In this document: positions 18,178 through 55,859 of the stretch, one piece after another
Layout of the letters: every line of letters starts with the position of its first letter
How positions within the stretch are numbered: position 1 is the first letter of the stretch
Source of the DNA: Chiloscyllium plagiosum
Taxonomy: Eukaryota
Direction: 5' to 3'
Assembly (NCBI RefSeq): GCF_004010195.1
Contig: NC_057714.1
Location: 61,219,868-61,283,867 of the forward strand
Length of the DNA stretch: 64,000 nt
Notes under the pieces: model-generated
What the model saw: the letters and a program-made list of their open reading frames with translations, nothing else
Told to the model about the DNA's origin: nothing
Database searches by the model: none
Position numbers and translations under genes: made by a program

Positions 18178-19588
18178 TAGAATCATAGAGATATACAGCA
18201 TGGAAACAGACCCTTCGGTCCAATCCGTCCATGCCGACCTGATATTCCAACACAATCTAGTCCCACTGCCAGCACCCGGACCATATCCCTCTAAACCCTT
18301 CCTATTCATATACCCATCCAAATGCCTCTTAAATGTTGCAATTGTACCAGCCTCCCCCACTTCCTCTGGCAGCTCATTCCATACACGTACCACCCTCTGC
18401 GTGAAAACATTGCCCCTTATGTCTCTCATATCTTTCCCTCTCACCCTAAACCTATGCCTCTAGTTCAGGACTCCCCACCCCCAAAGGAAAATACTTTGCC
18501 TATTTACCCTATCCATGCCCCTCATAATTTTGTAAACCTCTAAGGTCACCCCTCATCCTTCGATGCTCCAGGGAAAACAGCCCCAGCCTGTTCAGCCTCT
18601 CCCTATAGCTCAAATCCTCCAACCCTGGCAACATCCTTGTAAATCTTTTCTGAACCCTTTCAGGTTTCACAACATCTTTCCGATAGGAAGGAGACCAGAA
18701 TTGCACACAATATTCCAACAGTGGCCTAACCAATATCCTGTACAGCCGCAACATGACCTCCTGACTCCTGTACTCCATACTCTGACTAATAAAGGAAAGC
18801 ACACCAAACGCCGCCTTTACTATCCTATCTACCTGCAACTCCACTTTCAAGGAGCTATGAATCTGTACTCCAAGGTCTCTTTGTTCAGCAACACTCCCTA
18901 GGACCTTACCATTAAGTGTATAAGTCCTGCTAAGATTTGCTTTCCCAAAATGCAGCACCTCGCATTTATCTGAATTAAACTCCATCTGCCACTCAAATGG
19001 CTAGTTCTCCCTGTATTCCATGAGATCTAACCTTGCTAATCAGTCTCCCATGGGGAACCTTGTTGAACACCTTACTGAAGTCCATATAAATCACATCTAC
19101 TGCTCTGCCCTCATCAATCCTCTTTGTTACTTCCTCAAACAACTCAATCAAGTTCATGAGACATGATTTCCCACGCACAAAGCCATGTTGACTATCCCTA
19201 ATCAGTCCTTGCCTTTCCAAGTACATGTACATCCTGTCCCTCAAGATTCCCTCCAACACCTTGCCGACCACCGACGTCAGGCTCACTGATCTATAGTTCC
19301 CTGGCTTGTCTTTACCACCCTTTTTAAACACTGGCACCACATTAGCCAACCTCCAGTCTTCCGGCACCTCACCTGTGACTATCGATGATACAAATATCTC
19401 AGCAAGAGGCCCAGCAATCACTTCTCGAACTTCCCACAGAGTTCTCGGGTACACCTGATCAGGTCCTGGGGATTTATCCACCTTTACCAGTTTCAAGACA
19501 TCCAACATTTCCTCCTCTGTAATATGGACATTTTTGCAAGATGTCACCATCTATTTCCCTACAGTCTATATCTTCCATATCTTCCACT
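18178..19588 (-). mobile_element. Young CR1 copy with internal deletion near 18993
   Basis: 185-aa and 158-aa RT ORFs; highly similar to 1-1541. Confidence 0.92.
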
Positions 19589-45109: not shown

Positions 45110-45324
45110 GAGAAAGTGAGGGCTGCAAATGCTAGAGATCAGAGCTGAAAATGTGTTGCTGGAAAAGCGCAGCAGGTCAGGCAGCATCCAAGGAACAGGA
45201 GAATCGACGTTTCGGGCATAAGCCCTTCTTCAGGAATCAGGGCTGAAGAAGGGCTTATGCCCGAAACGTCGATTCTCCTGTTCCTTGGATGCTGCCTGAT
45301 CTGCTGCGCTTTTCCAGCAACACA
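45110..45324. mobile_element. Family A hairpin with an intact hammerhead core on each strand
   Basis: 82-bp arms 45152-45233 and 45243-45324 with 1 mismatch; TSD ACAAGATACACAAAAG at 45094-45109 and 45322-45337. Confidence 0.88.
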
Positions 45325-48380: not shown

Positions 48381-48460
48381 TATTCCCCTGCTTCAATCTA
48401 TTGTATTTGTTAGATGTCAAGTATAGAAAACTAGTTTTTAAAATAGTGCTGCTTTAGAAA

Positions 48461-48675
48461 AGTGGTGGAAAAGCACAGCAGGTCCGGCAGCATCCGAGCG
48501 ACGGAAAAAATGACATTTCAGGCAAAAGCCCTTCATCAGGAAAGTCCTGATGAAGGGCTTTTGCCCGAAACATCGATTTTCCTGCTTCTCAGATGCTGCC
48601 TGACCTGCTGCACTTTTCTAGCGCCACTCTAATCTTGACTCTGATCTCCAGCATCTACAGACCTCACTCTTGCCT
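48461..48675. mobile_element. Family A hairpin element
   Basis: Inverted arms around the AAAGT centre at 48541-48545. Confidence 0.85.
48537..48584 (+). ncRNA. Type I hammerhead ribozyme motif with full stem I
   Basis: CAGGAAAGTC/GATTTTCCTG 10-bp stem I; CTGATGA; GGGC-TTTT-GCCC; GAAAC; ATC triplet. Confidence 0.75.
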
Positions 48676-53116: not shown

Positions 53117-53555
53117 TATTCAAGTTCTGTATGACTAAACGACATTTGAAATCCAATAATATGCATTATAGTTCAGAAGGATCAAAATTATTGAAAACAA
53201 AACCAACATACTGTAGATGCTGGAAATCTGAAAAAAAATTTCTTGGAGAAACTGACTAGGTCTGCAGCATCTGCAGAGAGAGAAACAGTTAACGAGAAAA
53301 CAGAAAAAAGCAGATGCTGGAAGTCAGAAACTAAAACAAAAACTGGTGAATAACCTTAGCAGGTGTGGCAACATCTTTGGAGAAAAAGCAGAGTTAACAT
53401 TTTGAGTCCAATATAACTTCATGAAATAACTCCACAGAGGCCAGTATCCCATCACCAAACAACATTTTATTTATACATGGAGAGTCCTTGAAACTGATCC
53501 AGCTTCGTCAGAGCTCGCTCGCAGTGTGAACAGAATCGCTGACACTCCTGGTCTT

Positions 53556-54005
53556 TTCTTTTTTGCTCTTCTTACACGCGCACTCACACACTGATCCAAC
53601 TCTCAACAGGGAAAACACCCAAGTGGCCAGTGACAAGCAATGCCCCTCACATCAAAGGGTAATGCTGTGTGATCACATTCCCCTTTTTTCTTTTTCACTC
53701 TTTTTTTTTAAATTAACCCCCACACTACCGCCTAACCGCGGTAGTGCTTATTTTTTCCCCAGCACCCATGTGTGTGTGTACAGGTGTGAGACACAGTGAA
53801 AGACACAAAGTGCATGAATCTTTATTCAATTTCCACCACCAGGAAGATAGGAAAACACCCGGGTGGCCAGTGACAAGCAGTGCCCTTCACATCAAAGAGC
53901 AGTGCTGTGTGATCAAAACAGTGAAGGGGAGGGTAGGGACTAAATCAAAATAGAATTGGAGGGAGGACACTCCTGTTCTTTTTTTTTCTTTTTTTTTCTT
54001 TCCTC
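53556..54005 (-). mobile_element. Stacked poly(A)-tailed 3'-end insertions (putative Tx1-like)
   Basis: T-tracts on +, bracketed by GACACTCCTG(T/G)TCTT at 53541, 53966 and 54006. Confidence 0.6.
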
Positions 54006-54789
54006 GACACTCCTGTTCTTATCTGTCAGCCATGGCTCTCTGATTGGACCAGATTAACAGCCCCAATCAGGGAATTCATATTCTACGAGGACCAGCTGCC
54101 CTTTTGAGTGTGAGGACATAGGCCATTTTTATTTGTAGCTTCTCCTGGGGTGCTTTAGCACCTGGTCAGATTCCTTCAACTCTGCCTCTGATATGTGCGG
54201 TGTGTAATGCACAGTAGCTCGCCTCTTGTGCCTGGAGAATCTAGGAAGAAATTCATTCCCTTTAGGTGGTAAAGGCATTGAGGTGGTGACATTTGCCATG
54301 TCCATCTCAGATTCCAAGGTATCTTCAACTCTTGATGGAGAGGGAGAACCCATGGTTTCTGGAACAGTTGGAAATGCTGTTGAGGAACTGGGCACGTTTT
54401 GCTCCCTCACTGTTTGTGAGGTTGCAGCTTTTCTATGGTCCACATGTTTGTTCAGGATTGTCACATCGACCCATACTTTATACATCACTGCACCTGATCT
54501 CACATCGAACATGCTTCTTATCCATGCAGGGCCATTCCTATAGTTCCTACACCAAACTTCATTCGCTGAAGTAAACAATCTCTCTTGCTTATCAGAGTCT
54601 TATATCCAGCATCGGCATTTCTGATGCCATTATTGGCACTCCTGACGCTGCATTCAATTCGGACACCAGACATAACTTCACACCAGCATCTTCATTTTGG
54701 AAACCCTTAGATGATCCTGGTGAACTTCAGTCAGTATCTGGCGGTGACCTTTGCTTGGGACAATCACTCATGATTCCCATAATAATATG

Positions 54790-55080
54790 CCGTCCTCTAC
54801 CATAAGCTGGTCTCTCAAGGTTGAAAGTGCAACCAAAAGCAGAGGAGGAGGTTTTTGAGAAAATCAAAAAGGGAGTGCAAATGCCCACATGCAATATACA
54901 CGTGGTCCACGGACTCCACAGCGCCACAGAACAAGCAGTTGGGCTGGGAGTCCGTGAACCACCGCAATCTGTGGTTGCAGGGGACCACTGCGTGCAGCAC
55001 CCTCCACCCCAGATCCCCAAGAGAAAGGGGGAGGACTCTTCGTAGAGACCCCTCCACTGGGGATCCCCACCGCCCGGTGG
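54790..55080 (-). mobile_element. Tx1/L1-group LINE ORF2 C-terminal zinc-finger fragment
   Basis: DLGWRVLHAVVPCN..L..F....NCLFCGAVESVDHVYIAC (zf-RVT-like CCHC). Confidence 0.8.
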
Positions 55081-55859
55081 GACACTCCTGTTCTTATCTG
55101 TCAGCCAGGGCTTCCTGATTGGAGCAGATTAACAGCCCCAGTCAGGTCACTCATTCTATGAGGTTGACCTGGCTGACCTTGTTACAATCACTACACTTCA
55201 GAACTTGAAGACTCTGAAGAAGAGCTCTATTAGACTCAAAACATTAACTCTATTTCTCCCTCTACGCAAGCTGCCAAATCTACTTAGCTTTTCCAGCAAT
55301 TTTTAAAAAAATGTTATTACCTTCTGTATTATATCAAATGATTTATCAAATGGAATTTTTATTTGAACCTCAAATGTAAGTGAGAGATATAAAACATTCT
55401 TTAAACAGTAATTATCTCATCCTTCTTGGAAATGCTGGTACGGACGGTCACTTGTCCTGAAGAAAGATGAGGCACATCCTGTTCCTATATTAATATTTTC
55501 TAAAGGCCATATAAACAGCAGCTTGCTGCCAAATTATCTATGACCTCAGGATATGGTGATATTAAAAAAAAGTGATTCTATTGATGGCTTGGACATAAAT
55601 GATTTTGTACATTTTTATTCAATACATCCAGCAAGTTTATTTGTCTGGTTGTAATTCCTGAAGAGGACATGTTTCTTTGTCTGCGGATGCTGCCAGACCT
55701 GCTGAGTTTCTTCAGCACTTGCTGGTTTTACTTCAGACCTCTAGTTTCCACAGCACTTTACATTTATCTCAGCTGATTTCAGAATAAAGAGAACAAACAT
55801 TTACTTTCTACCAATCTAATGGTTGGCAGGCTAACTGCAGCTGAACAACTGGCTACCTT

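Follow-up and report, generated by a model that had tools for sequence, protein, structure and literature searches.

A LINE retrotransposon in the shark Chiloscyllium plagiosum, of the Tx1L lineage, preferentially occupies the long terminal repeat (LTR) of an old Gypsy-type element. We consider it probable (about 0.8) that this LINE targets the LTR at its TATA-like box, where it builds arrays and has acquired 5′ ends (heads) derived from the LTR, and that the locus described here also holds a segment imported from contig C30. LINEs that choose their target form a small and useful class. They supply model endonucleases for programmable insertion and raise the evolutionary question of why an element keeps its target. 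With thousands of copies, on and off target, and graded 5′ heads, the present family can be used to test whether a LINE keeps its target by borrowing the promoter found there. The series of LTR-derived heads and the imported segment are new here.

The window is the whole stretch of 64,000 nucleotides of contig NC_057714.1 that was analysed. A preliminary description had located a 15-mer four times in it and had read the surroundings as insertions of a Tx1-clade LINE into both LTRs of one Gypsy element. All four positions are correct: 53541 (with one mismatch), 53966, 54006 and 55081. Shuffled sequence gives a mean of 0.18 matches, and none of 100 shuffles gave four or more. T-tailed inserts do lie between the first three copies, and the fragment adjoining the fourth is indeed the zf-RVT end of an ORF2 in the same orientation as the tails; its Pfam match (E = 2.6e-5) is below the curated cut-off, and it is 46% alike to Xenopus Tx1 ORF2 over 71 aa. 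The region is made up of the following features.

53417–53421, plus strand: 5-bp target duplication CTTCA to the left of the solo LTR; matches 55196–55200 in sequence
53422–53540, minus strand: solo Gypsy-type LTR, downstream half (probably the R/U5 side), with a terminal CA when read on the minus strand; 76–83% to LTRs of host elements and 68–81% to C30 LTRs
53541–53555, plus strand: native copy of the target, forming the left side of the target duplication; sequence match with one mismatch to 55081
53556–53675, minus strand: short copy, with a tail, of the junction found in class II 5′ heads of the LINE; by alignment, long copies L135, L137 and L143 carry this junction at their 5′ ends
53676–53965, minus strand: 3′ portion of the Tx1-type LINE (final ORF2 codons, 3′ UTR and poly(A) tail) with a target-like remnant; the tail motif has 4186 genome matches and is contiguous with ORF2 in long copies
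53937–54827, minus strand: 891-nt segment copied from the C30 locus; it differs from that locus at 4 of 891 positions, whereas the adjoining 234 nt on the left hold 22 differences
53966–54020, plus strand: imported 15-mer, 25-bp tail and 15-mer; the identical unit is found at C30, twice in the array there
54021–54097, minus strand: imported upstream LTR half with CCAAT-box hairpin, far end deleted; 92/92 to the C30 3′ LTR
54098–54827, minus strand: imported Gypsy-type interior (integrase-end region), internally deleted; 74–81% to other host copies carrying RT_RNaseH and rve
54823–55080, minus strand: 5′-truncated Tx1 ORF2 fragment (zf-RVT) without a tail of its own; Pfam and Xenopus Tx1 matches, up to 94% to long copies
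55081–55095, plus strand: native target copy at the TATA-like box of the LTR, right member of the duplication; sequence match and LTR comparisons
55096–55195, minus strand: upstream half (probably the U3 side) of the solo LTR, starting with TG on the minus strand; 80–86% to other LTR copies
55196–55200, plus strand: 5-bp target duplication CTTCA to the right of the solo LTR, from the sequence

The outer halves (53422–53555 and 55081–55195) share the CTTCA duplication, and in the simplest reading they form one solo LTR (53422–55195) with a composite insert. They do not appear to be two LTRs of one element, since the middle is C30-derived and the outer halves are only 68–83% to the C30 LTRs. A genome search with the Gypsy piece identified the near-identical C30 locus, where the Gypsy interior continues to the empty 5′ LTR of the element; both of its own LTRs are present there and the 3′ LTR holds a long array. 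The window segment is 99.6% identical to this locus and its inner LTR half matches completely, whereas the LINE piece just to its left has diverged. The left junction has 29 nt of overlap or homology with the LINE 3′ piece and the right junction 5–6 nt of microhomology. These comparisons indicate import of 891 nt from another chromosome. The solo LTR would thus have received a head-derived short copy and a LINE copy of ~800 nt, which would have lost ~275 nt, replaced by the 891 nt from C30. Template switching onto read-through RNA and homology-primed DNA repair from the C30 locus would both fit as the route.

The 25-bp tail, the 15-mers at 53966 and 54006 and the inner LTR half came with the import, and the native hits in the window therefore number one to three, rather than the at least three independent hits in both LTRs that had been proposed. 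The idea that the 25-bp tail marks a fresh hit in the window was rejected because the same tail is present at C30. The insert of 410 bp described earlier is T-tailed as stated; it is not a single insert but a composite of a 120-nt copy of the LINE 5′ head (53556–53675) and a LINE 3′ end. The head copy consists of a piece of the LINE's own 3′ UTR followed by a clipped LTR-derived piece, and 39 other scored places in the genome match it at 80–92%.

The anatomy first proposed, a single Gypsy element whose two LTRs were each hit independently before a large internal deletion, does predict a 5-bp duplication flanking the outer ends and the order of LTR half, interior and second LTR half. The identity of the middle 891 nt to C30 right up to the junction, with outer halves at 68–83% and host copies differing by ~20%, would then call for a deletion together with a conversion tract that stops precisely where the deletion lies, and we regard this anatomy as close to refuted. 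A mis-join or haplotype artefact of the assembly is very unlikely as the source of the identity between window and C30. The assembly is fragmented (101,977 contigs) and has N gaps near young copies, but there are four real differences in the 891 nt, the window stretch holds no N gap and both junctions lie at homology or microhomology with LINE sequence. By carrying halves of LTRs and parts of the interior from one chromosome to another, the arrays can lead annotation to report two-LTR elements that do not exist.

The 15-mer has 808 exact matches in the 3.56-Gb genome, against 15 for a control. In the first 30 loci it is a single-copy part of a ~235-bp repeat bounded by TG and CA, with an insert at the 15-mer in 8 of the 30. 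It is also single in empty LTRs, so the repeated 15-mers are not part of the LTR consensus, the possibility that the preliminary description had named as an objection to itself. LTRs vary at this site, and the exact 15-mer represents one of several forms. Host copies carry RT_RNaseH and rve, and in L162 the RNase H region precedes the integrase end; paired LTRs are found in L157–L159 and L161, and interior copies are 76–80% alike. With TG..CA LTRs, a short target duplication (5 bp at the window LTR) and the RT-RNase H-integrase order, the host is an old, abundant Gypsy-type LTR retrotransposon family. Its LTR copy number is crudely ~20,000, from cross-matches of 2/30 and 2/50. The long LINE copies are 85–98% alike, which places the LINE later than the host family. 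Among 32 empty LTRs the TATA-like box reads TAAGAAC in seven and TATAAAC in six, and 14 have an initiator-like motif at +30 from the box; the LINE cut thus falls within what would be the TATA box of the LTR. We note that in at least 7 of 50 LTRs (L210, L211, L224, L232, L241, L243 and L247) the spacer between the inverted CCAAT-box arms is itself inverted, a recurrent hairpin micro-inversion.

Walking through natural copies gives a full LINE of ~6.7–7 kb. ORF2 in L136 and L140 matches Pfam Exo_endo_phos and RVT_1 above cut-off, that is an N-terminal APE endonuclease followed by the reverse transcriptase (RT), and the closest solved relatives are L1 EN and ORF2. The closest named protein is Xenopus Tx1 ORF2 (YTX2_XENLA, P0007), at 53% over 726 aa, 45% over the endonuclease and 69% in the RT region. 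In an RT tree of 15 proteins, all of them protein-search hits, midpoint-rooted without a non-Tx1 outgroup and without named Keno or Tx1-Mar sequences, the element falls, with support of 100/99, in one group with Xenopus Tx1, one unnamed protein and proteins from turtle, ray and sturgeon, the ray protein being its closest relative; alligator and other fish (teleost) proteins lie apart. The Tx1-clade assignment made earlier therefore holds. A poly(A) tail, 5′ truncation and target-site duplication, traits of the clade, are all present. A separate ORF1 with one CCHC knuckle was found in three of five copies translated, all with broken frames, and a Pfam search of the ORF1 pieces gave no family match. 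The 3′ piece and the ORF2 piece, whose joining had been suggested as a check, belong to one family: they are collinear, ~305 nt apart, in 18 loci among the matches listed, a count that includes overlapping fetches of one copy. Metagenome scans by protein and by tail motif found no relatives. In L137 two long copies stand in tandem, both with class II heads. In L100 (2218–2360) a LINE copy runs straight into sequence that we take to be 5S rRNA-like, possibly a template-switch chimera.

Target preference was assessed on the first 57 independent loci of one contig (C1, first 86 Mb), obtained by merging exact matches to the tail motif. An LTR half directly adjoins the tail in 32 of these by script and in 35 after three were added by eye. 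All LTR-hosted tails lie at one LTR position and in LTR sense orientation; chance hosting would be ~3 per million on the crude figure of ~20,000 LTR copies. The 35 of 57 loci exceed the one sequence type in more than 20% of flanks that Kojima's rule asks for. Within arrays, 23 of 23 junctions with insert sequence among those listed stand directly before the same LTR word, with a 13–16-nt target copy and in the LTR sense direction. From the side of the host, 50 LTRs were picked by an upstream motif, blind to the site: 7 were occupied, 38 empty and 5 unscorable, so that 7 of 45 scorable LTRs had been hit.

No LTR host was scored for the remaining 22 of the 57 tail loci, and the LINE thus shows a preference rather than R2-like exclusivity. 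Many of these loci lie at T-rich sites with 11–17-bp duplications ending in T-rich steps. Target remnants between T-runs at several of them suggest source copies in LTR arrays. Four long copies (L135, L139, L142 and L144) lack an LTR half at the 3′ end. Where the commonest tail type is the only one at a locus, LTR and non-LTR loci are equally frequent (18 each), and a comparison of tail subtypes (18/36 vs 12/16, p = 0.13) did not establish a link to LTR hosting. The preliminary description had proposed a target-specific LINE and had named random flanks of other copies as grounds for giving it up. What survives is a strong preference for one LTR site, with 13–16-bp duplications and fixed orientation; the flanks of the other 22 copies do not support strict specificity. 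A second target site, suggested by L060 and L077, was rejected because it lies inside the passenger family described below. Beside the usual 11–17-bp duplications, long ones of ~115–150 nt occur at L033, L041 (1360–1670) and L073.

Dedicated targeting could be dispensed with if an abundant L1-like element loosely preferred T-rich sequence, with the LTR box and earlier T-tails acting as hot spots, and if the arrays were mostly local duplication. About a third of loci are indeed off the LTR at T-rich sites, and identical junctions and multi-unit blocks do recur within arrays. The count of 35 of 57, however, is of independent loci and not of units, at one position and orientation and about five orders of magnitude above chance (with the crude copy number); 22 LTR-hosted loci have only one motif-bearing tail, and the LINE heads derive from the target. 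We therefore judge this explanation highly improbable and retain the reading of an LTR-targeting LINE.

The targeting LINE, which encodes an ORF1 with one CCHC knuckle and an ORF2 with APE endonuclease, RT and zf-RVT, would nick the LTR antisense strand at a T-rich/A step inside the TATA-like box. Reverse transcription would be primed on the LINE poly(A), with duplication of ~13–16 bp. By analogy with Tx1L biochemistry, the endonuclease probably sets the insertion site, and a looser T-rich preference may account for the off-LTR third. Each insertion rebuilds the target site, and the mostly 5′-truncated copies thus stack into head-to-tail arrays. Some loci hold about ten T-tailed units with a target copy between units. 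The 5′ ends cluster at ~170–190, 245 and 300 nt from the tail (65, 14 and 15 of 241), and single arrays repeat one 5′ junction up to four times, so that unit counts overstate independent events; stacked copies cannot be counted as independent hits. The repeated junctions could arise from cDNA annealing to a neighbouring unit, from re-insertion of array transcripts or from local duplication. The C30 array (L157, 1400–4180) has about a dozen units; multi-unit blocks recur in it, one 5′ junction is found four times and another repeat interrupts it.

The same target is used by a second family of tailed elements, ~1.9 kb long and containing tandem repeats (L139, 7680–9660; also L028, L037, L066, L072 and L078). 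Its motif has 660 genome matches, and most of the 15 tails among those listed follow a target-like word. Searches of Rfam, Pfam and protein BLAST gave no match. Its head weakly resembles the downstream half of the LTR. It is likely a non-autonomous passenger, by analogy with SINEU and Tx1-Mar.

The LINE 5′-UTR motif has 154 genome matches, of which the first 30 loci were classed by their heads. Eight (class I) carry 67–100 nt of LTR sequence, from the target through the initiator-like motif, 84–90% to empty LTRs, with alignment scores of 87–103 against at most 43 for shuffles; three of the eight continue into the ORF1 region. In 15, by reading, the LTR piece is clipped, and in 14 of these it follows sequence from the end of the LINE's own ORF2 and from its 3′ UTR, the latter incomplete and lacking the poly(A) signal. 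The LTR piece is nearly gone in the other seven. About 12 of the 30, by eye, reach a tail soon after the head, in the same targets. The possibility that such head-type pieces are the 3′ end of a separate family was rejected, as they are the 5′ region of the same LINE. The alignments indicate that the heads originate from LTR sequence just downstream of the cut, and the duplications of 115–150 nt show how an LTR-derived head could arise.

Given this origin, a long copy inserted on target regains the upstream boxes, TATA, initiator and leader of the LTR ahead of ORF1. Whether the LINE uses the LTR promoter in this way is, in our estimate, evenly balanced. Most or all of the LTR piece is missing from 22 of 30 heads, which start with sequence from the 3′ region of the LINE itself; an internal or a read-through promoter would account for these equally well. 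A sequencing-run search with an empty LTR copy gave no RNA run among those listed. Two single-cell poly(A) runs were compared with a class I head locus; one gave 56 partial reads without a start pile-up and the other none. All 56 reads were less than 95% alike, mostly from other LTR copies, with 174 letters over the head skipped as repeats.

Targeting may be real and the LTR promoter nonetheless unused, the head being a passive relic of a long target duplication and transcription starting from a promoter in the 3′ part of the unit upstream, the arrangement of HeT-A arrays. This is a serious though less favoured possibility. It draws on the class II and III heads, which begin with the LINE's ORF2 end and partial 3′ UTR, have no poly(A) signal and vary in their 5′ ends, and on the long duplications at L033, L041 and L073. 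Class I heads, on the other hand, have the target as their starting point and still contain the initiator-like motif at +30, three of eight run into the ORF1 region, and the sense orientation is invariant. Taken further, promoter capture leads to a scheme that we put forward only tentatively and think somewhat doubtful as a whole: a promoter-less LINE lives on the promoter of a dead LTR family, cutting at the TATA box, with a head that would rebuild TATA, initiator and leader. Only on-target long copies would then be expressed, and specificity would be self-selected. In later subfamilies, sequence from the 3′ region of the LINE would have replaced the head, a switch of the HeT-A kind that would have gone along with a loss of specificity, while the arrays collected head-only retrocopies, the non-coding passenger family and kilobase cargo from other chromosomes.

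The target was first thought to be of an undescribed class. This proved wrong: Kojima 2015 (PMC4494074) describes two crocodilian Tx1 families with LTR preference, Tx1-8_Crp and Tx1-4_AMi, and the shark family is therefore not a new principle. These cluster with Keno in the Tx1-Mar group, whereas the shark family groups with Xenopus Tx1 among the 15 proteins compared; the head of Tx1-4_AMi is U1-derived and that of the shark family LTR-derived. Tx1L of Xenopus laevis also uses one site in another transposon (PMC1950540, PMC4494074). That target is the DNA transposon Tx1D, as opposed to an LTR region of presumed promoter function, and Tx1L is described as stringent, its endonuclease nicking almost only its target (PMC1950540), whereas about a third of shark loci are off target. 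A literature search turned up nothing published on a shark Tx1 family that inserts in the TATA box of an LTR, a weak negative because Repbase Reports and most subscription papers lie outside its coverage.

Keno, Utopia and R2 likewise insert at one set position in a repeated unit that bears a promoter; that unit is a host RNA gene, in contrast to the terminal repeat of a decayed retroelement used by the shark family. R2 also has target-derived 5′ ends. R2 is reported to depend on flanking transcription (PMC4494074), and Utopia-1_NVit to insert in tandem (PMC4640811). HeT-A and TART of Drosophila likewise form head-to-tail arrays with 3′-region sequence repeated at the 5′ end (PMC1636488). Theirs are telomeric, whereas the shark arrays are interstitial, in LTRs. 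HeT-A and TART belong to the Jockey clade.

Elsewhere in the window, positions 45152–45324 and 48454–48632 each hold a near-perfect inverted pair of a short abundant repeat, 82–88 nt long and 3–9 nt apart, which we take to resemble Penelope-type ends. Another reverse transcriptase fragment is found at 18996–19550 (RVT_1, E = 2.2e-10).
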